This document shows, piece by piece, positions 26,678 through 60,401 of a stretch of 64,000 nucleotides of DNA. The stretch is taken from positions 1 to 64,000 of the IMG/VR virus record IMGVR_UViG_3300017492_000028; one strand, written 5' to 3'. The notes beneath the pieces were generated by a model that was not told the origin of the DNA, searched no databases, and saw only the letters and a program-made list of their open reading frames with translations. Both the position numbers and the translations under genes were made by a program. The stretch comes from a virus (lineage: Duplodnaviria; Caudoviricetes). Every line of letters starts with the position of its first letter. Position 1 is the stretch's first letter.

Positions 26678-27445
26678 TTAATTATTTCTTGGGTCAAATG
26701 TACTATTATAAAAGAAATTGCGCCAACCCTCATCTTTATTCATTTTAGCTTTTGCAGAAGCAGCAGCTTTCGGTCTAAGGGTATTCCACTGTAAATAAGG
26801 ATTTGTAACAGGTGAATTAGATTTTAAATCATATACAGGATGATGACTACCTCTACTAAGGTGTTTAAATAGAATATACCATGCTAGTGCTTCTAGCAAA
26901 AGACCATCATCATAAATATACGGAACTTCACAATTAAAATAATCATCATAATAAGTAGCAACTTCGTTTGTTTCAACTGTGATACTATCTGTATCAAAGT
27001 TTAACTCAATGCTATTTCCAGAAACAACAAAGTTTCTACTTGAATCATTAGATATTACACTTGCTACTCGCATAAAATTAGTCCCTGTAGTATTGGTGTC
27101 ATCAATAATAGCAATGACATCTTCACTAGTTTGTGTGGAACCCCCCGTAGAAGAATTGTTGCATGAACAATTACTTGATGAGCTATCATTAGCTGCTTCT
27201 ATTTCACAGCCATTTTCATCATATACCTTAATGTCATTAGCATCTAATGAACAAGGAAATGTAGCAATTTTATCTGTAACCTCAAGAGTACGTTTCTTAC
27301 GTTCTCTAGGCAAACATTTCATTTGGCTAAGAGCGTCTATAACCCATGCAGCACAACGCGGTATCCAATCACTTTCACTAATATTAAAGTCATTATCTAC
27401 CTTCGCTACAAGCCTTTGCATACTTATATATGTATTGATTTTCAT
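26678..27445 (-). CDS. Tail tubular / ring protein (P22 gp4-like)
   Basis: Start moved to MKINTY at 27445; upstream of muzzle as in crAss-like tail modules. Confidence 0.6.
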   Translation of the reverse strand: MKINTYISMQRLVAKVDNDFNISESDWIPRCAAWVIDALSQMKCLPRERKKRTLEVTDKIATFPCSLDANDIKVYDENGCEIEAANDSSSSNCSCNNSSTGGSTQTSEDVIAIIDDTNTTGTNFMRVASVISNDSSRNFVVSGNSIELNFDTDSITVETNEVATYYDDYFNCEVPYIYDDGLLLEALAWYILFKHLSRGSHHPVYDLKSNSPVTNPYLQWNTLRPKAAASAKAKMNKDEGWRNFFYNSTFDPRNN

Positions 27446-28340
27446 TTCTAATAAATTTAGTATATTCCTGTGGATAACGTTTAAGATATAATGTAAGTTT
27501 CTTTGCAATGTCAAGTGGAAGATTTAATATATCATCTTTGGTTTTGCAAGTTGCAAGTATTTCATCATACGACATATTTTTATAATTACGACCAATATAT
27601 TCTGTACGGAATATTTTTACTGAATGTCCATGAGTTACTCTACAATTTATTAATATTAGCTCATACGCATGATCTCCTGTAAGATAAATACGTGGGTCTT
27701 CTGCGTCATATTCAATGCCATATTTCTTGCACCAAAGATATGTTTCTCTATCCCAAACTTTACCACCATTAGCTTTTATTTCTGCTTTTCGTTTATTTGT
27801 TTCTCGAAAATTTATTGCCTTACGATTACCTTTTAGTTTGAATCGATTAAACAACATACATCCAAGCATACCACTCATTACATATCCATTTCCATTATCA
27901 ATCATCTCTTTGTGAACCTGCGAATAATATACACGAAGAATATCTCTATACTTAAAATAATCCAAGTCATATTTCTTTTCTTCTAACGCAAGTTTATCTT
28001 CATCCTCTTTAAGAGCTTTTTGAAAAGAAGCTAATTTATAAATATCTAGTAGTTCCATTACTACTTGATATTGATTTTTCTTATTCATAAAAAGAGCTTT
28101 AGCTGCTTTAAGGAATGTACCGTCTGTATATTTATTATCTTGATACTCGTCATAGTCATAAGGGTTAAAATGATAGTGAGTATTTACAAAATCAGTACTT
28201 TTCTCTACTTTAGCTTTAAGTTCTTCTATTCTATTTTCTAGTGCCTGTATTTTCTCTTTGTATCTTTTAATTGTGATTTTGGCTCTAATATGAAACCATT
28301 TATAATAATCACTAATACCTATAGGCAGTTCTTCAATCAT
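27393..28340 (-). CDS. Conserved crAss-like basic protein (IHF/HU-related gene 53 position)
   Basis: 315 aa, K/Y-rich; synteny only. Confidence 0.45.
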   Translation of the reverse strand: MIEELPIGISDYYKWFHIRAKITIKRYKEKIQALENRIEELKAKVEKSTDFVNTHYHFNPYDYDEYQDNKYTDGTFLKAAKALFMNKKNQYQVVMELLDIYKLASFQKALKEDEDKLALEEKKYDLDYFKYRDILRVYYSQVHKEMIDNGNGYVMSGMLGCMLFNRFKLKGNRKAINFRETNKRKAEIKANGGKVWDRETYLWCKKYGIEYDAEDPRIYLTGDHAYELILINCRVTHGHSVKIFRTEYIGRNYKNMSYDEILATCKTKDDILNLPLDIAKKLTLYLKRYPQEYTKFIRNENQYIYKYAKACSEGR

Positions 28341-28343
28341 ACT

Positions 28344-29033
28344 TTAATTGAATTTAATATTATTTTGAATCTCATCTGTTTCACGATGAGTTTGTACCAA
28401 ATTACGCTTATATATAATTTCTGTAATCTGACCTATCATATCCTCTGGGAGAAGCCATTCATTTTCATCCATTGCAATATCCCATTTATCGGTTTCACCA
28501 TTATTTGCTTCAATAACATTAGGATGTTCAAAAGCAGACTCAATAACTATTGCTCCCTGCTCAAAAGGATAATTATCAGCAGGAAATATATAAATAAACC
28601 CATTAATATAATCATATCTAGGCATAGCACACATACCCGGCAAACTACTTGTAAACCGTGCAGCTGCTTCTTTAATAAATGGTATTTCTCGATTCGTTTT
28701 ATAACCTACTGTAGAAACTCTATCAAATGGCAGATTATTAGTCAAACGAACAGGACGTGGAACTTTTTGTTGTGTTCTTTTAATGGTTTCTATATCTGAC
28801 GTATCAATATCTAATCCGTCAAGATTTGGATCACCGTCAGGAACATCAATAAGACTAACTTTATATCTTTGAGTTAGTCCTTTATCAACATAACCATGAT
28901 TTTCATAGCTATGTCTGATAAGCTCGTTTCTTGTATGTATTATAAGGAGCTTAAGATTTTCTCTAAGTGCTCTATTATTAGGTTGTCCCAGAGAATGACT
29001 TAACTCACTTACTAGTTGCGCAATACTAGCCAT
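28344..29033 (-). CDS. Conserved tail structural protein (ring/hub)
   Basis: 229 aa; first gene of the tail operon. Confidence 0.5.
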   Translation of the reverse strand: MASIAQLVSELSHSLGQPNNRALRENLKLLIIHTRNELIRHSYENHGYVDKGLTQRYKVSLIDVPDGDPNLDGLDIDTSDIETIKRTQQKVPRPVRLTNNLPFDRVSTVGYKTNREIPFIKEAAARFTSSLPGMCAMPRYDYINGFIYIFPADNYPFEQGAIVIESAFEHPNVIEANNGETDKWDIAMDENEWLLPEDMIGQITEIIYKRNLVQTHRETDEIQNNIKFN

Positions 29034-31934: not shown

Positions 31935-32231
31935 CTACTTGTGTTTAGTAACATATTCGTCTAATACTGATTTGCTCCATGATAATTCTTTAAAACCAAC
32001 ATCTTTACGTCCTTTTGGTAGTTTACCGTCATGAACTAAATTATCAAATGTTGCTCTGCTTACATGCAAATATCTACATGCTTGTTCTTTACTTAGCCTT
32101 GTTGAAGTTATTTCATTAAGACAAGACAATATCATTTGTCCGTCAGCTTCACTAATTGTAGAATTGCCTGCATCTATATCATCAACGAGTTTAGCAAGTA
32201 TGTTACGAATTACATGTATCATTATACACAA
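31935..32231 (-). CDS. Excisionase/MerR-like HTH DNA-binding protein
   Basis: RLSKEQACRYLHVSRATFDNLVHDGKLPKGRK. Confidence 0.75.
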   Translation of the reverse strand: MCIMIHVIRNILAKLVDDIDAGNSTISEADGQMILSCLNEITSTRLSKEQACRYLHVSRATFDNLVHDGKLPKGRKDVGFKELSWSKSVLDEYVTKHK

Positions 32232-33085
32232 ATAGTATTAATCTCATCATCTGTTATAGCTACCATTGCATCAAGACTTGCCTGCAACTCTGCTTCAGCC
32301 GCTTTAGCACGAGCAATTTCTGCTGTCAAACTAGCATTCAAATTAGAAATATTAGTAGTATTGGTAGCAATATTAGTCTTATTAGTTGCAATATTTGTTG
32401 CATTAGCACTTTCAGCAGCTTTAGCACGAGTTGTTTCAGTACTTATTGCGTCTGCATTAGTCTGCTCTGCTGCTTTAGCGCGTGTAACTTCGTCAGACAA
32501 ATCAGAAGTAAGAGTATTCTCTGCCGTCTGTGCGCGAGTAGTCTCTGTTGAAATTGCAGTAGCATTTGTTGACTCTGCTGCTTTAGCACGAGTTACTTCA
32601 TTATCAAGATTGGTCTGAACTGCTGCAATCTTATTAGTAATAGTAGATGCAAAATTCGCATCATCACCAAGTGCATCAGCCAACTCTTTCAATGTATCAA
32701 GAGCCTCTGGGGCAGCACCAACCACGTTCTCAATAGCAGTAGTAACTTCAGTTTTTGTCTGATACTCACTGTCATTCTCAAGCTGAGAAACCTTAGTTAC
32801 ATTCTTAGCATTAGCCTCAATTCCGTCAAGTTTAGCCTTGTAAGCATCAGTAAAATCATTAGCAGAAAGAGCTTTTCCCTCTACCTTATCAACTTTAGTT
32901 GCTTCAGCTGCTGTAGCACGAGTTTGCTCTGCTGCTATTGCATCAGAGTTCTTAGTCTCTGCTGTTGTAGCACGAGTAATCTCGTTACTGAGAGCTGTCG
33001 TAAGAGAGCTATTAAGATTAGATACCTGTGTTTTAATTAAATTCCAAAGGGTTTTAAGACCAGTTTCATTAAGATATTTAGCCAT
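32222..33085 (-). CDS. Coiled-coil fibre/needle-like protein with N- and C-terminal conserved motifs
   Basis: KYLNETGLKTLWNLIK; repeated E(V/T)TRAxAAE; ends AITDDEINTICV. Confidence 0.7.
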   Translation of the reverse strand: MAKYLNETGLKTLWNLIKTQVSNLNSSLTTALSNEITRATTAETKNSDAIAAEQTRATAAEATKVDKVEGKALSANDFTDAYKAKLDGIEANAKNVTKVSQLENDSEYQTKTEVTTAIENVVGAAPEALDTLKELADALGDDANFASTITNKIAAVQTNLDNEVTRAKAAESTNATAISTETTRAQTAENTLTSDLSDEVTRAKAAEQTNADAISTETTRAKAAESANATNIATNKTNIATNTTNISNLNASLTAEIARAKAAEAELQASLDAMVAITDDEINTICV

Positions 33086-33118
33086 AATGATATTATTTTT
33101 AAATTGTTTATTATTAAT

Positions 33119-33703
33119 TTATTGACAAATTGTTATAACTTCCGCAGAAGATATTGCGGTAATTGCATTAATTTTAGCAGTATTTGTATCTATACCATTT
33201 TGAAGTACCAAATGTTCAGCTGCTGCTGATAACTGTGTTTCAAAAATAGTATCACTTTGTTCTTTATTGTAATAATCTGCAAGGTCTATTTCAGACCTAA
33301 AATCACCAAGTTTCTCGTAATCATTAATTGTGTTAGAAGAACCATCACCACGATAAAGATACTCTGTATAGAGATTATTTTCACTATCTGCGGTTTTAAG
33401 AAGATAAACCTTATTAGTATCTGGTTCATCCACAGGAATTGATGATACAACATTGAAAAGCTCTTTATTTACCAAATCAATGTTTTCTCCTGTTAACAAA
33501 CTTTTTCCATTAATCGTTGCAATGTTGACATTATCAACAAGATTATCTTGCTTTGTTTCAGCAAGTGTTGCAATGTCATTTTCATTGGTTGTGATTTCAC
33601 TACTAATTTCGTCAAACAACTTGCTTAGCTGATATTTTTGTGCATCACTAAGATTAATTGAATTAAGCTTGTTAAAAAAATAACTTAAACTACTATTCTC
33701 CAT
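33119..33703 (-). CDS. Fibre-associated protein
   Basis: KQDNLV...INGKSLL; VYL...NNLYTEYLY domain; ends AISSAEVITICQ. Confidence 0.6.
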   Translation of the reverse strand: MENSSLSYFFNKLNSINLSDAQKYQLSKLFDEISSEITTNENDIATLAETKQDNLVDNVNIATINGKSLLTGENIDLVNKELFNVVSSIPVDEPDTNKVYLLKTADSENNLYTEYLYRGDGSSNTINDYEKLGDFRSEIDLADYYNKEQSDTIFETQLSAAAEHLVLQNGIDTNTAKINAITAISSAEVITICQ

Positions 33704-34016
33704 TTTTTACAAGACTTTTATAATCTATATTATATTTCTTACATATAGGTTTAATAATCCAACTCCATGAAACAGGTGATACAATAGATGAATTAAGAAG
33801 AACTAGCTTGTTTTCATAATCACCAATGTACAGGTAACATCCTGCTATAATTACTATACTGCATACAAGTAGCACACGTTTCGTAAAAGTTGAAACTACT
33901 TTTGCCCCATTAAGATAATCTACAATGTTAATCAATATATATGTTAATACATTTACTATTAAAATAAATGTAAAATCAAAATTATTGAATACTTTTTGTA
34001 TTATTTCATCTATCAT
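33693..34016 (-). CDS. Putative holin
   Basis: ~107 aa, 2-3 TM helices, basic C-terminus; start moved to MIDEII. Confidence 0.55.
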   Translation of the reverse strand: MIDEIIQKVFNNFDFTFILIVNVLTYILINIVDYLNGAKVVSTFTKRVLLVCSIVIIAGCYLYIGDYENKLVLLNSSIVSPVSWSWIIKPICKKYNIDYKSLVKNGE

Positions 34017-34027
34017 AATTATGACTA

Positions 34028-34783
34028 CTAAGTTGCCGCACAAACAGCCCGAACATATTTTACCCAATCTTTATTACCAGCATATTGACCTGTAGAACCA
34101 TTTGGTTCTAGTCGCCAAGCATACGCTGTATCAAATTGTGTTGATGACCAATAAGCCTCATTTGAAGCAATCTCTGTACCTCCAACAAGAGTAAGAGCAC
34201 TGTTAAGGTCTGTTGAAAAACAATCCATACTATACAACTCTGTTATTGTTGGCAAATAACCATTCTTACCATTTGGAAACACATAGTTTTTACATTCATA
34301 AGCCGCATAACCGTCAGCAGAAGTTCCTTGCGCTGCAATGATTGCATCGGTATTAGCTTCTCCGGCAACATCATACGATCGTCTAGCCACAGTTACACTA
34401 CCTGTAGCAGTACTATCATCATATATAGTTGTACAACCGTCTATTAATAATTTTCTACTTCCCCATGCTCTTTTTGTGCAATCAGTTAATGCTACAATAA
34501 AAGCAAAATACGTAGTAGGAGTATAAGAAATTTCGTTATGTCCTCTAATGTCAACAACTGCAATTCCAACTACATTGTCATTATTCGTTGTGTCCCATTC
34601 TGCTGGCTTAGTATAATTGCCGTCCATATCATAAACATAAACACCTCTAATTTTAGGATATTTAGTTCCATGATATTTATCAATTTGTTCATCAACATAC
34701 TCTTTAGTTACGCATATATCGGCTGCATAACCTTTTAGCTTACTCCAAAATGTTTCTACACCATGTTTATCTAAGTACTTCAT
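34028..34783 (-). CDS. Putative receptor-binding protein with C-type-lectin fold (DUF1566/Lcl-like)
   Basis: KYLDKHGVETFWSKLK; YLPTITEL...YWSSTQ...AW...VRAV. Confidence 0.7.
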   Translation of the reverse strand: MKYLDKHGVETFWSKLKGYAADICVTKEYVDEQIDKYHGTKYPKIRGVYVYDMDGNYTKPAEWDTTNNDNVVGIAVVDIRGHNEISYTPTTYFAFIVALTDCTKRAWGSRKLLIDGCTTIYDDSTATGSVTVARRSYDVAGEANTDAIIAAQGTSADGYAAYECKNYVFPNGKNGYLPTITELYSMDCFSTDLNSALTLVGGTEIASNEAYWSSTQFDTAYAWRLEPNGSTGQYAGNKDWVKYVRAVCAAT

Positions 34784-34794
34784 GAATATATGTT

Positions 34795-34923
34795 TTAAGT
34801 TGTACTAGAATGATATTTGCTTATTTGCTCATCAACATAGTCTTTAGTAGCATAATTATTGTCAATAAACTCTTTTACTTTAGCCCAAAGAGTTGCAAGA
34901 CCTTGTTCATCTAAATATTCCAT
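34795..34923 (-). CDS. 42-aa mini-protein consisting mainly of the N-terminal fibre motif
   Basis: Hand translation MEYLDEQGLATLWAKVKEFIDNNYATKDYVDEQISKYHSSTT*; fills the gap between neighbouring genes. Confidence 0.8.
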   Translation of the reverse strand: MEYLDEQGLATLWAKVKEFIDNNYATKDYVDEQISKYHSSTT

Positions 34924-34935
34924 ATATATATATAT
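34922..34935. repeat. (AT)7 microsatellite at a translation start
   Basis: Abuts the ATG of the 42-aa ORF. Confidence 0.85.
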
Positions 34936-34939
34936 TATA

Positions 34940-35554
34940 TTATATTTTCTTTATGCGAATATAGTCTATTTGCCCTATGGCATATCTTTGCAAAGTACTA
35001 CCGTCGCTGCCATAAGCAGCCCCAAGAACAATATTATTATCAAAGTTTATACTATGCTTATAAACAAGAGTATCATGACCCGTGTAACCAGTACTACAAT
35101 TAAAATAAGATACATCACCTATTTTAGTCCATTTTACAATAAGTGGATAATAAGCTTCACCGTCATTATAATCAATACTAATATACTTTGTAGATTCATC
35201 AAAATTAAGCTCAACAGCATAATGCCCTGTACTTTCATTAGCTGCATAAGCTCTGCGAATGTTAATACCTGCATAAGCACCACTTACTTCATTATACGCA
35301 CTAAATATGGTAGAATAATCACCGTCGGCATTAGCATCAGGATCGAATCTCATAAGCATAGTACACTCAAAGTTTGGTGCGTCAGTAGCAAAAGGCTTAA
35401 ACGGTACTTCTATTGCATTTGTTCCGTCAAACTCTAAACTATTGTTTTTATAGATTGTAGCACTTTCGCTTTCATCACTCAATGTATAGTCTTGAATAGT
35501 AGTTTTAATCTTTGCCCATAGGGTATTTAAACCATGCTCATCTAAAAACTTCAT
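34940..35554 (-). CDS. Putative receptor-binding protein, LamG/ConA-like beta-sandwich
   Basis: KFLDEHGLNTLWAKIK; TIFSAY...LVLGAAY...GQIDYIRI. Confidence 0.55.
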   Translation of the reverse strand: MKFLDEHGLNTLWAKIKTTIQDYTLSDESESATIYKNNSLEFDGTNAIEVPFKPFATDAPNFECTMLMRFDPDANADGDYSTIFSAYNEVSGAYAGINIRRAYAANESTGHYAVELNFDESTKYISIDYNDGEAYYPLIVKWTKIGDVSYFNCSTGYTGHDTLVYKHSINFDNNIVLGAAYGSDGSTLQRYAIGQIDYIRIKKI

Positions 35555-35925
35555 TTATCACATTTTAAATATATTATTAACGTTACAACCATTAATACAA
35601 AATAGCATATAACGTTCACTATCAAAAGTTCTAAATTTGATATTGGAATACCAATGTAATAATCATAATACGTAAGTATATTATTTATTACAACATAATG
35701 CAGAAACATTCTGTGATATTCACAATATCTAAATACATAAGAACTAACATATAAGAATACCAAAGGTATAATACCTGTACCACTAAGAATAGATATTAAT
35801 TGACAATCAATATTAAAATAAGATAGAACCGTATTAATTGCATACGAAGTTGCCAATATAAAAGGCATTATTTTTAATAGTATCAATTCTATTTTATATA
35901 ATATTTTACTTTGTCTAACTTCCAT
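35551..35925 (-). CDS. Multi-TM membrane protein
   Basis: 124 aa, ~4 hydrophobic helices. Confidence 0.65.
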   Translation of the reverse strand: MEVRQSKILYKIELILLKIMPFILATSYAINTVLSYFNIDCQLISILSGTGIIPLVFLYVSSYVFRYCEYHRMFLHYVVINNILTYYDYYIGIPISNLELLIVNVICYFVLMVVTLIIYLKCDK

Positions 35926-36082
35926 ATCTAAATACTCTTCTTGTTTTGGTAACTCCTGCCTTTTGAACTACAGGGTTTGGTCTGCCATTTGGCTTATTCA
36001 CAAATTTAATCGGTTCTCTTTTAGGACTATCTCTATTTGAAACAAATCCTTTTTTTACTAACTTAATTACTTTGTTAGGCAT
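35915..36082 (-). CDS. Small basic protein (55 aa)
   Basis: Hand translation MPNKVIKLVKKGF...AGVTKTRRVFRYGS*; abuts upstream stop. Confidence 0.6.
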   Translation of the reverse strand: MPNKVIKLVKKGFVSNRDSPKREPIKFVNKPNGRPNPVVQKAGVTKTRRVFRYGS

Positions 36083-39000
36083 TTAATCTGTATCTTTTGT
36101 AAACCATGTTTCTGGATTATCTATTAAACCTTGAAATGTAGGTCTATCATTTTCAATACTAGCTACTATATCCCCATTAGCATAATATATGTCATAATCA
36201 CCCTTAATGGTATTTCCTTTATAAAAAGATGCACCATTGCAAAATACTAGATAGCAACTTGTATCTATTTCATACGGTACAAAGAAAGTACCATTTAATT
36301 CATATTGCTCAACACCGTCTTTACAATATACTAGTGATATGTTACTATAATATTGACCGCTAACATTAAGATTATTATCATTATAATTACCTGTGGTTAT
36401 AGTTGGCTGTTGCTTACTATAAAAACCATTTGCTAAATACGTAGGATAGCAACCATTATCTCCATTAACGGTATCTTGTCTAGTACATATTTTAGAAGTA
36501 TAGGAACTATCTCCTGTATCATGCGCTGCAAAAATATAGAGATAACCTGCTGCTGTAGTTTTAAGGTTCATTAGTATAGCATTTACATAAGCATTTAGAG
36601 TAACCGTTGAGTTTAGCGAGTTTATTGTATATATGGACGAGAATAAAGTGAAACTATAAGGTATAGTTTTATTTAATCCCGTCCATTTCTGAAAATTTAC
36701 AATATACCAGCCTCCGTCATCAGGATTTTTCATTGCAAGCTGACAGCCACTACCAGTGGTAAAAAAGCCTGCTACAGTTTCTCCAGCAGAATTTTTAAAT
36801 TTATACGCTAAACTATCTTCTGATATAGCTGTTTCACTTCCTGCATTAAGTGTAGTACTTATACTATTTGCAGTAACATTACCTTCATTATCAACAATAA
36901 ATTTGTCATTGTAATTAATACTACTATCACTACCAGTGTTTATAGCAATACCGTTTTCAGTGAGTGTTACATTGCCATATTGTGTACCTTTTTGAACACA
37001 AGCCGCAATTTTATTATCATACTGTGTAATACTACTCTGCGCGGTTGTAAGACCTTTTTCTGTAGCAGTTATACGAGTTTCAAAACTATTTGCAGTTTGG
37101 GTTAGCTTACTTACGCTACCTTTTACAGTAGTTACTTCACCTGTTAGATTATTATATTCAGTCTGCAAGCTAGCTACATTAGTACTGATTTCATTTGCTT
37201 TTTCACTAATACTACTGTAATTTTCTGATACTTCTGTAATTTTATCTGTATTAGTATCTACAGAAGTTTGCAACTCTTTTACCTGTGTTTGTATTTTATT
37301 CGCTTGCTGTGTAATATTACTATAATTAGAAGTTAACGTTGCTACATTACCAGAAACTGTGTTTATACTACTTTGCATAGATTTGCTAAATATTATAGCA
37401 TTATCTATTACACTATTACTATAATTCGTTGATTCTGTAGTAAACGTTACATGGGCTGAATAAAGATGACTATCAACATTGACTGATACATCATATCCGC
37501 CACTATTCATTGGAATAGTTAAGTCTATCTTATCACCACTCGAATTATAAGTACCGTCAGTAACAACCTGTGTAGGAACATTAGTAATTTCAATATATCC
37601 ACAATAGTTATCACCAGAAGAATTTACAAACTTTGTTGAACAATTACTTTCATTGCTTATTGCAACATCACTATTGGCTATACTCAGCAGTGTTGTTCCC
37701 TTATATGCAACAATATAACTACGTGCGTCATCAAGATCAGCTGAATAAACCCCCTCCGTTGCACCTGCTTCAAGTGGAAGAACAAGGGATGTTGGTGAAA
37801 TACCAATTACAAGCTGTTCAGAACCACTGTCCCCACTATTAGTAGCAGTTCCAGCAATCATCACAGCACTCATTGTTCCATATAATGTAACAGTGGTATT
37901 ATTACTAGCATCTTCTGCATAATAGGCTTCAACAGTAAAAGGAATCTCATAACTTCCAAGACTAAGACCACTATAAGGTTTAGCTGTTATACTGTCGCTA
38001 GTTGACGTTACATCAATATACTGTGTAGGCAATGAATCTGTGTCAACTGTAATGCTTTTTATAGTAGCATTGCTTACAGTAACTGCATCATTGCTGTCAA
38101 CAGTTGCACGACTAACAGTAATCTTGTTTTTCAAACTAGTTGGAGTAATACTTATGGTATCATCACTTTCAGTTTTTACAAAAACGGCTATTGGAGAACT
38201 CTGGTTAAGAGTAAATGAAGAAGTACTTGCTTCATTAGCACTATCAGCATCATCAATTCTTTGAGGAGAAGTCCAACCACTTATTGTTCCGTCACTTTTT
38301 GCAATAGCAGTACTCATCCATACACCCTTGCTATAATCATCAACAACTTCATACCAACCTGTAGGATAAGTAACAGTTAGTGTAGTCCAATTAAAGCTTC
38401 CTCCTGTAGGAGTTGCAGGTTTAGTATCACTGTTACAGAAAGCAGTAATATTGACGTAAGCTGCTGCATCACCACCTGTATTCTTTCCGTCATAAGCATA
38501 ACGAGTCCAAAGAGCAGCTTTTCCTGTATCAGCATTACCTTTAAAATTACCCCAAACACCGTCTGTTTGTTTTCTAAGACAAACCCATTCATAGCAATTA
38601 GTTTCATCAACACCCTGTGGATTATCAGTCCAACCAGTAGGAACATAATCATCCTTGTTTACACTTGTTGGAATATTTGGTGCATCGTTGCTTGTAGTAC
38701 GAGTAAATATATACTCAATACTATCACCGTCAGTACCTTGTTTTCCATAAACGCTCCACCTTGCTGGAGTTGACCAACTCCCCCAAGTTCCGTCTGTCTT
38801 TACTCTTTGGCATATCCACTCTACGGGGGAGCTTTCTGTAATCCCTTGCGCTCTATCAGTCCAACCTGTAGGAACAAAATCATCAGTGTCTTCATTTTCT
38901 GTTGGAGTACTTACAACAGTATCATAACTGTTAACAAGTTTATAAATAAACTCATAGCCTTTTCCGTCAGTTCCTGCACTACCCTCACCACCACTTGATG

Positions 39001-39868
39001 AGCCATCAACAGCAGTAATTCTTACAGGAGTTGACCAAGCAGTATTTTGCTTACCTGTTGTAATATTCCAATCAGCACTACTCATATAAGTAATCTTACC
39101 CTCAATATGAGTTAAATCCCAGCCACTTGGAGGAGTAAGAGTAGCGGTACTAGTATTGTAAGTACCCCCCGTAGGAGAAGTGATTGTGTCATCAATAACA
39201 CTTGAGACATTCTTATAAATAAACTTAGACACAATGACATCTACACTGCCAGCAGCAGTTCCCGGGTCGCCTTTATCTCCTTTATCACCCTTATCACCTT
39301 TGTCTCCTTTGTCTCCTTTGTTTCCTTTATCGCCTTTATCACCTTTATCACCCTTTGTTCCTTTTGCGCCTGCTGGAATACCAAATGAAAAATTCAGCGT
39401 ATCATCGTTCATTGTTACATGCGCTTCGGCTGTACTTGCTTCATGAGCAGTAGCAACAGCTGATACATCGCCAAATTGCACACCGTCTTTTCCAGCAGGA
39501 ATTGCAAATTCAAAACTAAGTTTATTATCTTCTACATCAACATAAGCTGCTGCTTGTTCAGCACTAACAGCTGTTGCTTCAACCTCAATATCACTAAGTT
39601 TAAATTTTGGAACTCCAATATTAAGGTCAATAGACTTTTTATCAGTTTTTGCAAAAGTACTTAGCTCATCACTTTCTTGTGCGGTAAAGTTTACTTGCAC
39701 ATCAGATAAATCTGTTTCGATAGCAATATCTCCACTACCTAAAATAGATTCTCCATTAATGGTCTTAATATTCTCACCAGAAACAAGTTTATCTTGCTTC
39801 TTACTAAGTAGAACTTTTAGTTCTTCCCAAAAGACTTTAAGACCACATATATCTAATAACTTGACCAT
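36083..39868 (-). CDS. Large tail fibre/spike protein with collagen-like segment
   Basis: 1261 aa; KLLDICGLKVFWEELK; (GDK)n; repeated YEFIY..PT...DDFVPTGWTD blocks; C-terminal coiled coil and head domain. Confidence 0.75.
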   Translation of the reverse strand: MVKLLDICGLKVFWEELKVLLSKKQDKLVSGENIKTINGESILGSGDIAIETDLSDVQVNFTAQESDELSTFAKTDKKSIDLNIGVPKFKLSDIEVEATAVSAEQAAAYVDVEDNKLSFEFAIPAGKDGVQFGDVSAVATAHEASTAEAHVTMNDDTLNFSFGIPAGAKGTKGDKGDKGDKGNKGDKGDKGDKGDKGDKGDPGTAAGSVDVIVSKFIYKNVSSVIDDTITSPTGGTYNTSTATLTPPSGWDLTHIEGKITYMSSADWNITTGKQNTAWSTPVRITAVDGSSSGGEGSAGTDGKGYEFIYKLVNSYDTVVSTPTENEDTDDFVPTGWTDRAQGITESSPVEWICQRVKTDGTWGSWSTPARWSVYGKQGTDGDSIEYIFTRTTSNDAPNIPTSVNKDDYVPTGWTDNPQGVDETNCYEWVCLRKQTDGVWGNFKGNADTGKAALWTRYAYDGKNTGGDAAAYVNITAFCNSDTKPATPTGGSFNWTTLTVTYPTGWYEVVDDYSKGVWMSTAIAKSDGTISGWTSPQRIDDADSANEASTSSFTLNQSSPIAVFVKTESDDTISITPTSLKNKITVSRATVDSNDAVTVSNATIKSITVDTDSLPTQYIDVTSTSDSITAKPYSGLSLGSYEIPFTVEAYYAEDASNNTTVTLYGTMSAVMIAGTATNSGDSGSEQLVIGISPTSLVLPLEAGATEGVYSADLDDARSYIVAYKGTTLLSIANSDVAISNESNCSTKFVNSSGDNYCGYIEITNVPTQVVTDGTYNSSGDKIDLTIPMNSGGYDVSVNVDSHLYSAHVTFTTESTNYSNSVIDNAIIFSKSMQSSINTVSGNVATLTSNYSNITQQANKIQTQVKELQTSVDTNTDKITEVSENYSSISEKANEISTNVASLQTEYNNLTGEVTTVKGSVSKLTQTANSFETRITATEKGLTTAQSSITQYDNKIAACVQKGTQYGNVTLTENGIAINTGSDSSINYNDKFIVDNEGNVTANSISTTLNAGSETAISEDSLAYKFKNSAGETVAGFFTTGSGCQLAMKNPDDGGWYIVNFQKWTGLNKTIPYSFTLFSSIYTINSLNSTVTLNAYVNAILMNLKTTAAGYLYIFAAHDTGDSSYTSKICTRQDTVNGDNGCYPTYLANGFYSKQQPTITTGNYNDNNLNVSGQYYSNISLVYCKDGVEQYELNGTFFVPYEIDTSCYLVFCNGASFYKGNTIKGDYDIYYANGDIVASIENDRPTFQGLIDNPETWFTKDTD
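39260..39370 (-). repeat. Collagen-like Gly-X-Y repeat
   Basis: GAKGTKGDKGDKGDKGNKGDKGDKGDKGDKGDKGDPG. Confidence 0.95.
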
Positions 39869-39869
39869 A

Positions 39870-39887
39870 ATATATATATATATATAT
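39870..39887. repeat. (AT)9 microsatellite spanning the stop-to-start spacer
   Basis: Fills 39870-39886 between the stop at 39887-89 and the ATG at 39868. Confidence 0.9.
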
Positions 39888-39973
39888 TAGTTTGAACTTA
39901 ACTTTTTATCAGCATACGCCTTTATTTTCTCGATGATTATCTTCAAATCATCATAATCTACAAATTCTGTCAT
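39887..39973 (-). CDS. 28-aa mini-protein, diverged fibre N-terminal motif
   Basis: MTEFVDYDDLKIIIEKIKAYADKKLSSN* (alternative start 39979). Confidence 0.6.
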   Translation of the reverse strand: MTEFVDYDDLKIIIEKIKAYADKKLSSN

Positions 39974-39987
39974 AATCATAAAGTTTA

Positions 39988-40019
39988 AAACTAGGAGGAG
40001 AATTAACTCCACCTAGTTT
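39988..40019 (-). terminator. Hairpin/terminator after the 40026 gene
   Basis: AAACTAGG-AGGAG / CTCC-A-CCTAGTTT. Confidence 0.6.
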
Positions 40020-40025
40020 GATTGT

Positions 40026-41618
40026 TTAACCTAATATACTTGTACACAAACTCTCTATATCTGAAGTAGAAATTGCACTATCGGTAGTACCTGTATCGGT
40101 ATCTTTTTCACAGTACAAAGTATAACTATTATTATCTACTTTAATTGTTGCTATCTTTGTTCCGCTAGTCAAGATAGGATTAACAGTTACAGTAGAACCA
40201 CCTAGATTATTTACGTCAATCTTATCCAACTTAGCCTTATCACTTGCGCTCATCAAACCAGCTGTTGAAGTAGTAGCTGCCGAATATGTGGTATCAGTAA
40301 ACTTTGCATTAGCAGGAACACTTGCACCAAGAGTATAAGTACAAGCTACAGGAACTCCGTTTGCAAAATATACAGGCTGTGTAGCAGAACCAGCACTTGT
40401 ACTAAGCTTACTTGCGGTAGTAGCAGTAGTGGCACTAGTAGCACTGGTTGCACTATCTGCACTACCAGCTTTAGTTGCGTAGCTTACACTTGTTGGGGTT
40501 GGAATAGTAACTTTAGAAGTTGAGCTATCACTACCCGTCAACGTAACTACTTGCCCGCTTATAGACAACTCATAAGTAGTATTACCGTCACCGCCAGCTG
40601 CACTAGTAATCTCACTTACTTTATTATCTACATAAGATTTTGTAGCATAAATTGGAGTATAAATCGTATGTGCTGTACCGTCAACCGTAATGATAGCAAT
40701 AGAATCTCCGCTATTATATTCTGTTGCAACACTTACGATTGAACCGCTATTACCACTACTTGGAGCAGACGGCATTACTACAGTAATATCTGTTCCAGCA
40801 ACAGTTGCAATAGTATGACTAGACCCAAATGAAAGTGTTGCGTTTTTGTTAGTAACACTTACAGAAGTTGTACCACTACTACTACCTCCGCTTATTGTAC
40901 CATAAGTAAATACTATCTTACCTGTTGAACTATCAATACTAACACCAGTTATTGCGTTGCCACTGCCACTAGTAGTTACATTAGATATTTCAACATAATC
41001 TGATAAATCACTAGTTTTTGCATAACTTGACAAATCACTAGTTTTTGCATAAGCCGCTAAATCTGTAAGTTTTGCATATCCACTAAGGTCAACCGTTCCA
41101 CCACTACTTGCACTTGCAACAGCTGAATCAACATAAGATTTAGTGGCAATAGTACTCGTATCAACGCTTATAGTGGTACCACTAATGCTTATACCTGTGC
41201 CAGCACTATATGTAATAGGTTCAGAACTGCTTGTACCAGGAGTATATCCAAGTGCATCAATTATAGCGCTCTTAGTAAGAGTATAACTATATGTACAACT
41301 AATCTTTCTATTGGATATGCTTATATAATTACCTGCTGTATAGGTAGCTTGTGCTGTAGTAGCATAAGTACTACTAGCAGTACTCTTAGTAAGATATATA
41401 CTACTTGCATCAGTTTTAGTAAGATACGTACTTGATGCAGCAGATGTAGTAAGATAACTATTGAGTTTAGTAGTTAAATCTGTAGTAGTAACATAGGTAT
41501 TAGCTATTGTTTTACTAAGATTATTAATTTTGGTATCTACCTCATCACTTTGGTCACCAAACTTATCTACGATTTTAGACCAAAGAGTATTAAGACCATT
41601 AATATCTAAATATTCCAT
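40026..41618 (-). CDS. Ser/Thr-rich fibre protein
   Basis: Start MEYLDINGLNTLWSKI at 41618; DLSxYAKTS and TYLTKxxASS repeats; SAGSATQPVYFANGVP; ends AISTSDIESLC. Confidence 0.75.
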   Translation of the reverse strand: MEYLDINGLNTLWSKIVDKFGDQSDEVDTKINNLSKTIANTYVTTTDLTTKLNSYLTTSAASSTYLTKTDASSIYLTKSTASSTYATTAQATYTAGNYISISNRKISCTYSYTLTKSAIIDALGYTPGTSSSEPITYSAGTGISISGTTISVDTSTIATKSYVDSAVASASSGGTVDLSGYAKLTDLAAYAKTSDLSSYAKTSDLSDYVEISNVTTSGSGNAITGVSIDSSTGKIVFTYGTISGGSSSGTTSVSVTNKNATLSFGSSHTIATVAGTDITVVMPSAPSSGNSGSIVSVATEYNSGDSIAIITVDGTAHTIYTPIYATKSYVDNKVSEITSAAGGDGNTTYELSISGQVVTLTGSDSSTSKVTIPTPTSVSYATKAGSADSATSATSATTATTASKLSTSAGSATQPVYFANGVPVACTYTLGASVPANAKFTDTTYSAATTSTAGLMSASDKAKLDKIDVNNLGGSTVTVNPILTSGTKIATIKVDNNSYTLYCEKDTDTGTTDSAISTSDIESLCTSILG

Positions 41619-41629
41619 GGTATTAAACT

Positions 41630-42277
41630 TTAAACACAAATTTTATCTATTTGATCATTGGTAATAGGAGTGTCGGGATTAGCAATATAAATATAAGTAC
41701 TTCCACTCCAGCGATAACTATAGTTGGTGTCTTTAGCTATATATATTTTACCTGTTTCTCCTGTTGCAGGAAAATCATTAAGAGTATCATATTCCAACAC
41801 GTCATCAACATAAGAAGGAAGTTGAGAAGAAGGAACTTTACCTGACCCGTCAAGACTTGCAACTCCGTTAGCTTGCCCAACAGAACTCTTATCAACCTTT
41901 TTATCAAGAGCTGCTTGTGTAGCAGTTGATATAGGCTTGTCAAGGTCCGATGTATTATCTACGTTACCAAGACCAACATCACCCTTTGTAATAGTTACGT
42001 TGCCGTCAAGTGCATGACCATTAATTGTAGTGGTCTTGTCAACTTTCTTATCAAGAGCAGCTTGTACTTTATCACTTATAGGTGCGTCTTTTGAAGAAAC
42101 ATTATCAACATTGCCCAAACCAACATCAGCTTTAGTAAGAACAGGATTCTCACTAATCTTATATCCGTTGATAGTATAATTATCAATAGTTTTCTTCAAG
42201 TTTGCAATACATTCTGCTATATACTTTTTAATTTTACTCCAAAAGTATATAACACCATCATAGTTTAAATACTCCAT
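41630..42277 (-). CDS. Fibre protein with duplicated TING...DVGLGNVDN repeat
   Basis: EYLNYDGVIYFWSKIK; NGVASLDGSGKVPSSQLPSYVDDVLEY; ends PITNDQIDKICV. Confidence 0.75.
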   Translation of the reverse strand: MEYLNYDGVIYFWSKIKKYIAECIANLKKTIDNYTINGYKISENPVLTKADVGLGNVDNVSSKDAPISDKVQAALDKKVDKTTTINGHALDGNVTITKGDVGLGNVDNTSDLDKPISTATQAALDKKVDKSSVGQANGVASLDGSGKVPSSQLPSYVDDVLEYDTLNDFPATGETGKIYIAKDTNYSYRWSGSTYIYIANPDTPITNDQIDKICV

Positions 42278-42984
42278 TATTCCTTACTTATTATTTGTTC
42301 AACAATCTCTTTTCTAATAGGAAAATCACACTCGCAATCATGGTGGTGATGATGATGAGAATGAATATCATGATGATGCCTATAAAAATCTAACAAATAT
42401 TTAATTTGCTCATCAGTTAATTCCTGTTTTTCATCATCAGTGTTGCTATCAGAATCACTGCCAGTGTCAGTGTCTGTAGTAGTATCATCCGTAGTGTCAT
42501 CTTTCTTATCTTCTAACTCTTTAATTGGGTCACTCATTATACGCCATAAATCACCAAGATCTATAAGTCCTGGTTCATCACAGCAATGAGGATGATGATG
42601 ATGTTCATAACAAGGTATTGGGTCTGGTACACCAGGAGTAAGACAAGGATGTTCTTCATGTACAGGACAATCCTTAAATTCTCTACCTTCGTACCATGCT
42701 TTACTTACGCAATGACGCTTGCCTAAAAGAATCTCATCAAGCATAATCCTCGGTATAGGCTTAGCTTCAAGTTTACCGTCTATAAAACAAGCAGTAGGAA
42801 GCCAATATCTATCATCAGTAATATCTATGCCAGCAGGCACAGGCTTTCTTGATATATAAGTCCTAAAATGTATAGGGTCAAACTTGTATGTAACAACACA
42901 AAGTCTGTTATAGGAATTACGTTTATCCCAATAACCCTCCACAGTAGGAGAAACTTTACCAAGATTTTCAATCTGTAGTTTCAT
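42277..42984 (-). CDS. crAss tail-fibre N-terminal anchor domain plus His/Cys-rich region
   Basis: LGKVSPTVEGYWD...YISRKPVPAGIDITDDRYW; HHHHPHCC; HHDIHSHHHHHHDCEC. Confidence 0.55.
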   Translation of the reverse strand: MKLQIENLGKVSPTVEGYWDKRNSYNRLCVVTYKFDPIHFRTYISRKPVPAGIDITDDRYWLPTACFIDGKLEAKPIPRIMLDEILLGKRHCVSKAWYEGREFKDCPVHEEHPCLTPGVPDPIPCYEHHHHPHCCDEPGLIDLGDLWRIMSDPIKELEDKKDDTTDDTTTDTDTGSDSDSNTDDEKQELTDEQIKYLLDFYRHHHDIHSHHHHHHDCECDFPIRKEIVEQIISKE

Positions 42985-47608: not shown

Positions 47609-49084
47609 TTAGAGTACACACTTTAATTGGAACATCTTGGTTGCATTGTTTACCTGCAAACCATAAGAGTTCATAATCTCATAAGCACTTGCATCAACAC
47701 GAGTAGAAATAGAAAGCTGCGGAACAGCACCCCAAGAAGCAGGTATATCAGCAAGTCCTTTATAAATACCTACCTTATAAATCTTACCCTTTAGACGAAC
47801 CTTACGAACATTACGCTGTCCCTCATAAGTACTCATATCAATCAAAAATGCTTGATGTGAAGTAATAGGCAAACCTGTACGAGGATGTATCATACCATTA
47901 GCTTTAGCATTTTCTGCTATAGTTCCGTGGTCAAGGAAAGGAAGTGCTTTTACAGTAATGGTATGACCGTCAACAGTCTTATAACGACGGAAATACTTAC
48001 CATAAGAAAGACCACCCTCAAAATCCTCAATCATCTTATCGCCAAGCGGAGTAGCAAAACCCTCTGAACGAGCATCGTTACGCATAGCCATATCAAAGTC
48101 CTGCATAAAGCCTTTACCACCCATGAGAACAACCTCCATTGAACCTGTATCAGTATCCTTATTAAGAACATCACCTACAGTACGCTCAATCTTGTTAAGA
48201 GTAAGAACTTCTCCATAAGTATCGTAATTGCTTTCACGACATATCTCCATCATACCTGCAGTATGAGGAATTGGTTTACCATTATCAACATCCTGAAGAA
48301 TTATCTCACCATTCTCTGTACGGTTATATTCAGCAAGCCACAGACGCTCCTCATCCATAACACGCTTAGTAATATCAAATTGACGCATTTCCTCATTAAT
48401 CCAAAGATTGGTTGTACCACCACCTTTAGTCTTAAACTGATACGTTACAACTTGATTAGCAAGGTCACCACCAATCTCTTTAGAATAACGATGAAGTTCA
48501 AGCTGTGAGGTCATCTTTCCAGGACCCATAACATTACTTCTATTACCCTTAGAATAAGACTGTGATACAGTAGGAGCAGTCATACTCCAATACTTACCCT
48601 TTTTAAGATTATCAAGGTCGCAATAAAGATTAGGATTAGGAGATGTAAGTTTAAGACGATAAACATAACCGCCATGAGTACCCTCACCAAGATCTTTCAT
48701 AATACGTACCTGCGTATGTCCGTCTGGAGCTATCAAACCATACTGCTCAATAAGCCAATGAGTAGCAAACTCAACATCAAACATAGCACCACCTTTACCA
48801 GGTGTCTTATTACTCTCATCTACCCACAGAACATAATCATTAAACTTCATACGTCCCATAGTTTTCCAAGTCCACTGAACCTTGTCAATATCAACAACTC
48901 CAGCAGTACCTTGACCCTCTGTCAAGAATGTAAGCGGAAACCTGTCATCATCCATACCATAAGTATAGGTAAGAATGTTATTAATTTCCGCAGGTTTTTG
49001 AAGCATAAGATGAGCAAGAGTCTCTTCATTAGAATAGCCTCTATCATCATATTGCCCACGTGAAATTTCTCTAAGTTTGTACAT
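47609..49084 (-). CDS. Major capsid protein (HK97 fold)
   Basis: 491 aa MYKLREISRGQYDDRGYSNEET...QLKCVL, recalled as very similar to the crAssphage MCP. Confidence 0.92.
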   Translation of the reverse strand: MYKLREISRGQYDDRGYSNEETLAHLMLQKPAEINNILTYTYGMDDDRFPLTFLTEGQGTAGVVDIDKVQWTWKTMGRMKFNDYVLWVDESNKTPGKGGAMFDVEFATHWLIEQYGLIAPDGHTQVRIMKDLGEGTHGGYVYRLKLTSPNPNLYCDLDNLKKGKYWSMTAPTVSQSYSKGNRSNVMGPGKMTSQLELHRYSKEIGGDLANQVVTYQFKTKGGGTTNLWINEEMRQFDITKRVMDEERLWLAEYNRTENGEIILQDVDNGKPIPHTAGMMEICRESNYDTYGEVLTLNKIERTVGDVLNKDTDTGSMEVVLMGGKGFMQDFDMAMRNDARSEGFATPLGDKMIEDFEGGLSYGKYFRRYKTVDGHTITVKALPFLDHGTIAENAKANGMIHPRTGLPITSHQAFLIDMSTYEGQRNVRKVRLKGKIYKVGIYKGLADIPASWGAVPQLSISTRVDASAYEIMNSYGLQVNNATKMFQLKCVL

Positions 49085-60008: not shown

Positions 60009-60401
60009 ATGGCAGAATATGTGGATAAAGCAGGCATTACAGTATGCCTTAATAAACTGAAAGATTATATAGATACAACCGCTGAAAACGCAGATACGGC
60101 AATAAGCGACTATTGCTCACCAACTTGCAGCTTCCGAACTCTTACAAAAGGCAGTACATTTAATTTTAAAAGTGGTATATATTTTATTTGTGATGCAAAC
60201 TGTACTAAAACTTATCCAAATCTTAGTGAAGTTACACATGTTATAATAAGTGAAGGTTATGTCGATAATGCTAATATGGTAAATCATAGTACTGGTAATA
60301 TACTTTTTACTATAACTGCTTCTAGTAATCATTATGTTTTAACAGCAAAAAGTGATATATACATAACGAATATAACAAATTTTACAGGATTGGGATATTA
60401 A
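60009..60401 (+). CDS. Orphan member of the fibre N-terminal-motif family
   Basis: MAEYVDKAGITVCLNKLKDYID. Confidence 0.65.
   Translation: MAEYVDKAGITVCLNKLKDYIDTTAENADTAISDYCSPTCSFRTLTKGSTFNFKSGIYFICDANCTKTYPNLSEVTHVIISEGYVDNANMVNHSTGNILFTITASSNHYVLTAKSDIYITNITNFTGLGY

Follow-up and report, generated by a model that had tools for sequence, protein, structure and literature searches.

In Klebsiella podophages, docking of a receptor-binding protein by an N-terminal peptide into a socket on the preceding receptor-binding protein is established. In phage KP32, docking by the 29-amino-acid (aa) N-terminal peptide of RBP2 is proven, and the socket is the internal T4gp10-like branching domain of RBP1 (PMC13352976). 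In crAss001, residues 1-26 of gp22 dock in the THA2-THB tail hub, and gp22 in turn carries further fibre proteins (PMC10172136). In TP901-1/Tuc2009 (BppU-BppL) and 80alpha (FibL/FibU), the C-terminal part of a trimeric baseplate protein holds the N-termini of receptor-binding trimers (PMC7048315). Here we analyse the fibre genes of IMG/VR record IMGVR_UViG_3300017492_000028, a partial crAss-like phage genome of 72,982 bp in one contig; its positions 1 to 64,000 (64,000 nucleotides) are referred to as the window. Proteins with unrelated bodies in this cluster share a short N-terminal motif (N-motif) or a short C-terminal motif (C-motif), or both. The best explanation of the sequence patterns is that each motif is one half of a non-covalent trimer-to-trimer joint, which we regard as probable. 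What is new relative to these systems is the terminal socket motif of about 12 residues, the use of one motif pair again and again along a chain, the class code, and the wide range of phages involved.

The closest functional parallel is KP32. As in the window joint, a short conserved N-terminal docking peptide (about 29 aa in KP32) is carried by a separately encoded fibre or spike, the downstream body is freely swappable, and only the first protein has the virion anchor. The KP32 socket is an internal domain, whereas the putative socket in the window is a motif of about 12 residues at the extreme C-terminus; KP32 forms a side branch, whereas window-type joints are serial, with up to three or four in a row. 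There is no sequence similarity between the two, and the likeness is functional (a 16-20-residue N-terminal motif on unrelated bodies). Binding is proven for KP32, while the window-type joint is known from genes alone, in many phyla and tail types. Pfam, PHROGs, and NCBIfam found no Gp10-like or other domain in 42277-42984, 41630-42277, 40026-41618, 33119-33703, or 32222-33085. Like crAss001, the window phage is a crass-type podophage with multi-protein fibres and a gene cluster with lectin- and hydrolase-type tips, and in both the plug would be the start of a trimeric fibre (about 26 residues in crAss001). Neither the N-motif nor the window anchor domain has detectable similarity to crAss001 gp22, gp21, or gp29; hhalign of the anchor profile against gp22 gave a probability of 0.07%, and a profile search of the PDB returned no crAss001 match.

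The long tail fibre of phage T4 (gp34-gp35-gp36-gp37) is assembled end to end from several gene products, and its lineage-specific joints include a monomeric hinge protein. T4 is like the window phage in having serial, mostly trimeric rods joined via their termini, with gene order matching assembly order. T4 has no shared motif, whereas one short motif pair is reused at each window-type joint, across unrelated phages. Nothing T4-like was found at the ends of the window proteins with Pfam or PHROG. TP901-1, Tuc2009, and 80alpha are similar in that the C-terminal part of a trimeric protein receives separately encoded N-termini, but they use Ig-like or BppU domains, none of which was found in the window proteins.

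The N-motif has the form M-x-[YF]LDxxGLxxLWxKIK and lies at residues 2-18 of seven minus-strand open reading frames (ORFs), starting at 42277, 41618, 39868, 35554, 34923, 34783, and 33085. The C-motif, AI[TS]xxEIxxIC, lies 1-5 residues ahead of the stop in four ORFs, ending at 41630, 40026, 33119, and 32222. In hidden Markov model (HMM) scans of the 73-kb genome, the seven N copies scored 30-44 bits (next best 7.6 bits) and the four C copies 16-25 bits (next best 9.7 bits), a separation that is partly circular in that the models were trained on the same copies. Six window ORFs have every invariant (L, G, W) and near-invariant (D, K, K) residue of the N-motif; 36083-39868 keeps L, D, G, and W and has E instead of K at one near-invariant position, and the full set is absent from 39887-39973 and 60009-60401. 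The motif-bearing ORFs listed in the initial annotation all exist and carry the motifs, but its literal regular expressions match only three N and three C copies. Its description of the bodies as unrelated holds, as beyond the first 20-50 residues there is only low-complexity coiled-coil similarity. Its collagen and coiled-coil assignments for 36083-39868 were confirmed by Pfam, whereas the C-type-lectin (CLec) and LamG-like assignments are language-model leads only.

Gene order links the two motifs. In more than 340 phage or prophage loci, the C-motif ends one gene and the N-motif starts the next, about 13 nt on, with 85-90% agreement in either direction. Among the matches listed from IMG/VR, the strict C-motif ends the ORF upstream of 88 of 144 N-motif genes, and most of the remainder follow visible variants (e.g., AIPTSVIDALN, ITNTWMDTNLT, and ITNETLEGLLN). 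An independent scan seeded on the C-motif alone (ITNAEIDxI) found it 1-7 residues ahead of the stop in 104/111 occurrences, and in approximately 94 of these 104 the next gene opens with the N-motif or an obvious variant. In HMM calls on 5,058 ORFs, an N-motif ORF came next after 211/249 C-ending ORFs compared with 50/1,797 other ORFs, a comparison that is partly circular. In prokaryote genomes, 94 of 135 upstream ORFs among the matches listed score on a C HMM built from viral sequences, and another group has an IPxxYIxxL variant. The intergenic gap has a median of 13 nt, and all frame offsets are used (57/68/77). The varied gaps and three offsets indicate separate, tightly coupled genes rather than frameshift or read-through products. 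Stop-codon recoding and programmed read-through or frameshift were likewise rejected as explanations, as the long ORFs are intact under translation table 11. In the window, the upstream gene ends in a C-motif for the N-motif ORFs starting at 42277 (variant motif), 41618, 33085, and 39973/39868.

The composition of the chains points to trimers. Among the proteins that stand first in a chain (upstream and without an N-motif), 15/64 match Pfam Prophage_tail (Tal, the trimeric tail-tip protein of siphophages); the others have tail or fibre PHROG matches or are small adaptors of 60-100 aa. At the ends of chains are proteins with Gp10_C, Peptidase_S74, collagen, or fibre repeats. All partners that could be identified are known trimers, and the joint would therefore be trimer to trimer. 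Seventy-four chains have two joints and one has three. The earlier proposal that linkers carry both motifs and that terminal, receptor-type proteins carry the N-motif only is supported by comparative genomics, and, at the level of comparative genomics only, the motifs behave as a cognate pair at consecutive fibre-gene junctions, in line with the docking it envisaged.

It has to be considered that each N-motif protein might plug separately into the same tail site (e.g., the 12 crassvirus fibre hubs) or into the capsid, with the C-motif an unrelated trimer cap or folding element, giving parallel fibres and no chain. The crAss001 structure offers precedents in the 26 N-terminal residues of gp22 in the THA2-THB hub and in head-fibre N-termini seated in hexon pockets (PMC10172136), the window N-motifs are closely alike, and three window N-motif ORFs have no C-motif gene upstream. 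This arrangement is nevertheless unlikely, as it leaves unexplained the adjacency of C-motif and N-motif genes in both directions, the C-motif on Tal proteins and small adaptors exactly where an N-motif gene follows, and the covariation of C and N classes described below, and as phages of every tail type, whose hubs are unrelated, carry the motif (contigs of 20-170 kb).

In the proposed joint, the last ~12 residues of a fibre or tail protein would fold as a short amphipathic helix, I-[TSP]-x-x-[E/Y]-[ILV]-x-x-[ILV], and this helix would dock at the very N-terminus of the next gene's product. On the receiving protein, M-x-[YF]LD would be followed by an invariant Gly starting a long helix, GLxxLWxKIK.... 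As a guess, three C-terminal helices may pack in the grooves of an N-terminal three-helix coiled coil. The AlphaFold2 (AF2) model of 41630-42277 (39 sequences) has a mean predicted local distance difference test (pLDDT) score of 79 and a predicted template modelling (pTM) score of 0.34. In this model, residues 1-5 are extended and residues 6-33 form a helix (pLDDT 89-94) that begins two residues before the invariant Gly (residue 8), such that nearly the whole N-motif is inside the helix. The C-motif is a short helix (207-214) with pLDDT of about 60 in the monomer model, and low confidence is expected here because the element would need its partner. Foldseek of the model gave nothing below E = 0.1.

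Cognate classes are a further property of the pairs. Chains with two joints show a systematic difference between the first joint and the second. Among 345 unique pairs, three C-classes map almost one-to-one on three N-classes, in the viral and genome sets alike: TNxELExxL occurs with G-x-L (40/42), TNxEIDxI with non-G-x-L (125/127), and IPxxYIxxL with G-x-[DT]-A (10/11). When position C5 is Y or F, position N(G+3), which is usually aromatic, is Ala in 12/16 unique pairs compared with 4/269 (Fisher p = 7e-15). Corrected mutual information is highest at C7-N8 and C3/C5-N9. With protein-body clusters as the unit, the association of class 1 and class 2 persists (7/1 versus 2/27, p = 2.6e-5). These statistics have the pattern expected of orthogonal docking pairs, short of proof. 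Orthogonal classes would be needed because a linker with both ends could otherwise polymerise with itself.

A natural fusion joins the two halves in one chain. The initial annotation had suggested looking for such fused proteins, and one was found: a 195-aa protein from two samples (P0261) that consists of an N-motif, a body, a C-motif (ISSETIDSITS), a 14-residue linker, a second N-motif, and a short tip. This layout is a Rosetta-stone-type fusion of both joint halves. It has no close homologues, no second fused form was found, and it holds the only internal N-motif among all proteins and loci examined. The rarity of the fusion suggests that free ends are normally required. In the window, 33119-33703 and 32222-33085 are in one reading frame, separated (33086-33121) by one TAA and 11 codons; one stop-loss mutation there would yield a C-motif/N-motif fusion resembling P0261.

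The motifs might instead both be recognised by a third party (e.g., a chaperone for assembly, a small adaptor, or ribosome-proximal co-translational machinery) and not by each other. Dedicated chaperones are often needed for fibre assembly, chains often begin with small 60-100-aa proteins, and the tight 13-nt spacing suggests coupled translation. We consider this quite unlikely, as no conserved third gene accompanies the pairs across phyla, the class-specific aromatic swap is most simply explained by direct packing, and the C-linker-N fusion exists in nature.

Selection on the motifs acts at the protein level. The motif copies in the window have 58-73% DNA identity with no long identical run, and across 203 distinct motif DNAs taken from other phages every synonymous codon is used for the invariant L, G, and K. 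This speaks against recent gene conversion and against an RNA or DNA element; the latter was ruled out by the freely varying synonymous sites. The same data bear on whether the conserved ends merely flank swappable cassettes, guiding recombination or tolerating swaps, with peptides that do not bind. In related loci, bodies between identical end motifs do vary in length and fold, the 42-aa ORF 34795-34923 resembles a leftover N-terminal duplicate, and the closest relatives are without the system, hence horizontal acquisition. However, conservation is at the amino-acid level, recombination needs no strictly terminal motifs, yet these motifs are terminal, and a recombination point between the halves would uncouple the classes, whereas the halves stay class-matched. 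Boundaries without binding are therefore highly improbable.

Several points weigh against the joint as we read it. Binding, its geometry, and the matching of plugs to sockets are our interpretation of what was observed, namely motif conservation, terminal position, adjacency, class pairing, and predicted helices. The pairing rule is broken in 10-15% of cases over all loci, and in the window the N-motif ORFs starting at 35554, 34923, and 34783 have no upstream C-motif gene and the C-motif ending at 32222 has no N-motif gene downstream. The variant socket of 42277-42984 and the diverged plugs at 39973 and 39868 were assigned by eye, by position, and by conservation in two relatives only. The class statistics were computed on unique sequence pairs without phylogenetic correction, adjacent motifs are tightly linked, and a conserved X-A-B gene architecture would likewise give class associations.

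The motifs are widespread. The initial annotation treated them as a feature of this phage, and this was too narrow: they occur in thousands of phage proteins in many bacterial phyla. An exhaustive search of 1.84 billion representatives with the N-motif profile found 4,312 proteins at E <= 0.001, giving a family of at least 4,312 clusters at 50% identity, and the match begins at residue 1 in 148/150 of the best 150 of these 4,312 representatives. A degenerate N-motif DNA pattern found at least 117 loci in IMG/VR (contigs of 20-170 kb), where the motif is within 2-5 residues of the start Met in 147/158 ORFs among the matches listed. The same pattern found at least 120 loci in GTDB genomes; hosts among the matches listed include Lachnospiraceae, Oscillospiraceae, Prevotella, Bacteroides, Collinsella, Bifidobacteriaceae, Fibrobacter, Treponema, Saccharibacteria, Campylobacter, and one Methanobrevibacter metagenome-assembled genome (MAG). 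Almost no deposited or cultured phages carry the motifs, and tblastn of a 24-aa N-motif against 50,697 deposited phage genomes gave three uncultured records only. Pfam, NCBIfam, and PHROG annotations have no entry for either motif, and no PDB chain includes one. No paper mentioning the motifs was found in the literature, and a full-text search on the motif strings gave only frog dermaseptins.

In the window, all genes of interest, including every ORF listed for the fibre family, are on the minus strand. The main chain would run from 42277-42984 through 41630-42277 and 40026-41618 to either a 28-aa plug or a 1261-aa collagen/coiled-coil fibre. The 235-aa anchor or adaptor protein 42277-42984 has no N-motif, and its N-terminal ~65 aa are the anchor domain. 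Residues 1-67 are 36-51% identical to 22 crAss records, with 13 invariant columns and the pattern M..LGKV..T...Y..L..V...I...VP...W of an Intestiviridae/Suoliviridae fibre-anchor family that includes crAssphage KP06_gp67 ("putative tail protein"). The position of the gene, after a conserved 249-aa gene, is the same as in other family members. At its C-end is the variant C-motif PIRKEIVEQII (42289-42321); this end is kept in relative L244 (89% identical protein) and recognisable in relative L245 (SIKRDNLNNLL), and an N-motif gene is next in both. The earlier suggestion that this protein is the base of the fibre is thus likely correct, given the crAss anchor domain and the C-motif variant kept in both relatives. 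A single-sequence scan with the anchor returned one fragment only. Upstream of the anchor lie a 249-aa and a 77-aa protein, neither of which matches the crAss001 hub proteins gp38 or gp39 in sequence, and hhalign of the 249-aa family against THA gp38 likewise found none. The AF2 model of the 249-aa protein is poor (pLDDT 57), and a fold search with this weak model gave only generic Ig-like matches. PDB sequence searches with the anchor, its 249-aa neighbour, the N-motif profile, and the anchor profile returned nothing relevant.

Two other features of the anchor protein were observed. A His6-Cys cluster, HSHHHHHHDCEC, lies at about 42328-42363, just before the variant C-motif; the His-rich/Cys cluster is kept in L244, and L245 has CGCD at the equivalent place. 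It may be a metal site at the trimer end. Residues 4-17 (NLGKVSPTVEG) resemble crAss001 gp29 (NLGNLSRIVEG; L001:15040-15408) over 14 residues, which is not significant (E = 0.047). The N-terminus of gp29 binds the capsid in the dimeric head fibre of crAss001 (PMC10172136), and the resemblance raises the question of whether the anchor binds the tail or the capsid.

The next protein, 41630-42277 (215 aa), has the N-motif EYLNYDGVIYFWSKIK at 42227-42274 and the C-motif PITNDQIDKIC at 41636-41668. With a class-1-like plug (GVIYFW) and a class-2-like socket (ITNDQIDKIC), it is a typical "A" linker. Its homologues in other crAss-like contigs retain both end motifs, and the layout in such contigs is an adaptor (67-74 aa), then A, then B (Peptidase_S74). 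One A-type linker on a 98-kb crAss-like contig (L235:9001-9864) translates correctly only with TAG as Gln, so the joint is also present in a stop-codon-recoded crassvirus lineage. The second linker, 40026-41618 (530 aa), has an N-motif at 41568-41615 and a C-motif, AISTSDIESLC, at 40044-40076, five residues before the stop; the L244 homologue is 82% identical and has both motifs. An inverted repeat, CTAGGTGGAG...CTCCTCCTAG, with a T-rich tract lies at 39980-40025, after the stop of this gene and ahead of the 28-aa ORF. It is kept in L244 and was not on the list of the terminator scan.

Two diverged N-motifs had been proposed, starting at 39973 and 60009. The first is the 28-aa mini-ORF 39887-39973, which follows the C-motif gene and the hairpin and carries only the diverged motif (MTEFVDYDDLKIIIEKIK; EFVDYDDLKIIIEKIK; 4 bits with the HMM). 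It is without the invariant G and W, yet it is kept in L244. The mini-ORF is probably expressed, because the changes between the two phages are mostly synonymous (six synonymous and three non-synonymous codon changes). The second, 60009-60401 (130 aa, plus strand), is a doubtful member with a weak N-motif-like start, AEYVDKAGITVCLNKLK (7.6 bits, E = 0.43). It lies in the early/late switch region on the opposite strand, and a Cys-containing beta-rich body follows the weak start. The terminal fibre of the main chain would be the giant 1261-aa protein 36083-39868, with a diverged N-motif, KLLDICGLKVFWEELK, at 39815-39862 and no C-motif; Pfam places collagen repeats at ~aa 165-205 and a coiled coil at ~aa 800-960.

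A second fibre module (genes 35554-32222, minus strand) is inserted between a membrane-protein gene and a helix-turn-helix (HTH) gene that are direct neighbours in relatives. Its parts are one joint (33119/33085), a single socket and two lectin-like plugs that are free, and a 42-aa ORF with a plug only; relatives of the module were searched for and none was recovered. The C-motif-only protein 33119-33703 (194 aa; AISSAEVITIC at 33125-33157) would connect to the coiled-coil linker 32222-33085 (287 aa), which has an N-motif at 33032-33079 and the C-motif AITDDEINTIC at 32228-32260. The latter is called an orphan socket because no N-motif gene follows, and it may take the tip proteins 34940-35554 and 34028-34783. 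Tip protein 34940-35554 (204 aa) has the N-motif only, is an orphan plug because no C-motif gene is upstream, and is a candidate ConA/LamG-like protein (Laminin_G_3, a language-model lead). Tip protein 34028-34783 (251 aa) also has the N-motif only, with a DUF1566/Lcl_C (C-type-lectin-like) language-model lead. The 42-aa ORF 34795-34923 has the N-motif only and repeats, in diverged form (50% identity), the first 40 residues of the gene after it. That mini-ORFs act as socket caps and that free plugs share the free socket is speculation. Small multi-pass membrane proteins also lie among the fibre genes: one at 35551-35925, in the same position in ctcc615 and cr271_1, and one at 33693-34016, only within the inserted module.

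(TA)n runs of at least five repeats occur only twice in the 73-kb genome, at 34923-34935 and 39871-39887. Both lie immediately next to the start codon of an N-motif ORF, the first at the 42-aa ORF and the second at the 1261-aa fibre, and the run before the 1261-aa fibre is also present in L244. These runs might be slippage-prone expression switches or recombination scars.

The major capsid protein (47609-49084) matches Pfam Crass_capsid and is 83-85% identical to those of cr271_1 and ctcc615 (Intestiviridae, Obtuvirinae) and 65% identical to that of crAssphage. The capsid/hub genes lie on one side of the fibre cluster and the tail-barrel genes on the other. Ring proteins 1 and 2 are at 26678-29033, and Pfam and PHROGs gave mostly no match for neighbouring structural genes. 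The closest relatives, ctcc615 and cr271_1, and 16/18 related contigs scanned have joint-free long single fibres. As these relatives are without joints, gene content suggests that a joint-type fibre set was grafted onto the crAss anchor in this lineage. The joint is common to this crAss lineage and other phages, and it may have been acquired from those phages.

A wider proposal, which we offer tentatively and with some doubt, is that trimeric phage fibres have a near-universal "snap joint" in these motifs, whose plugs and sockets fall into three or more mutually orthogonal classes. The joint would serve siphophage-type, crAss-type, and other tailed phages of more than 10 bacterial phyla (plus the one Methanobrevibacter MAG), and host-recognition fibres would be built head to tail from freely exchangeable modules, each with its own gene; plug-only mini-proteins (28-76 aa) would control fibre length or valency as caps or competitors. 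Provided that the joint is real, it would supply a simple sequence rule, a C-motif before the stop and then a start with an N-motif, by which annotators could group "hypothetical" phage genes into one fibre, in order. The connectors would be compact and naturally orthogonal, for plug-and-play exchange of receptor-binding modules in laboratory phages. The joint would also explain how gut phages, including crAss-like phages, swap receptor-binding tips while the tail is left untouched.

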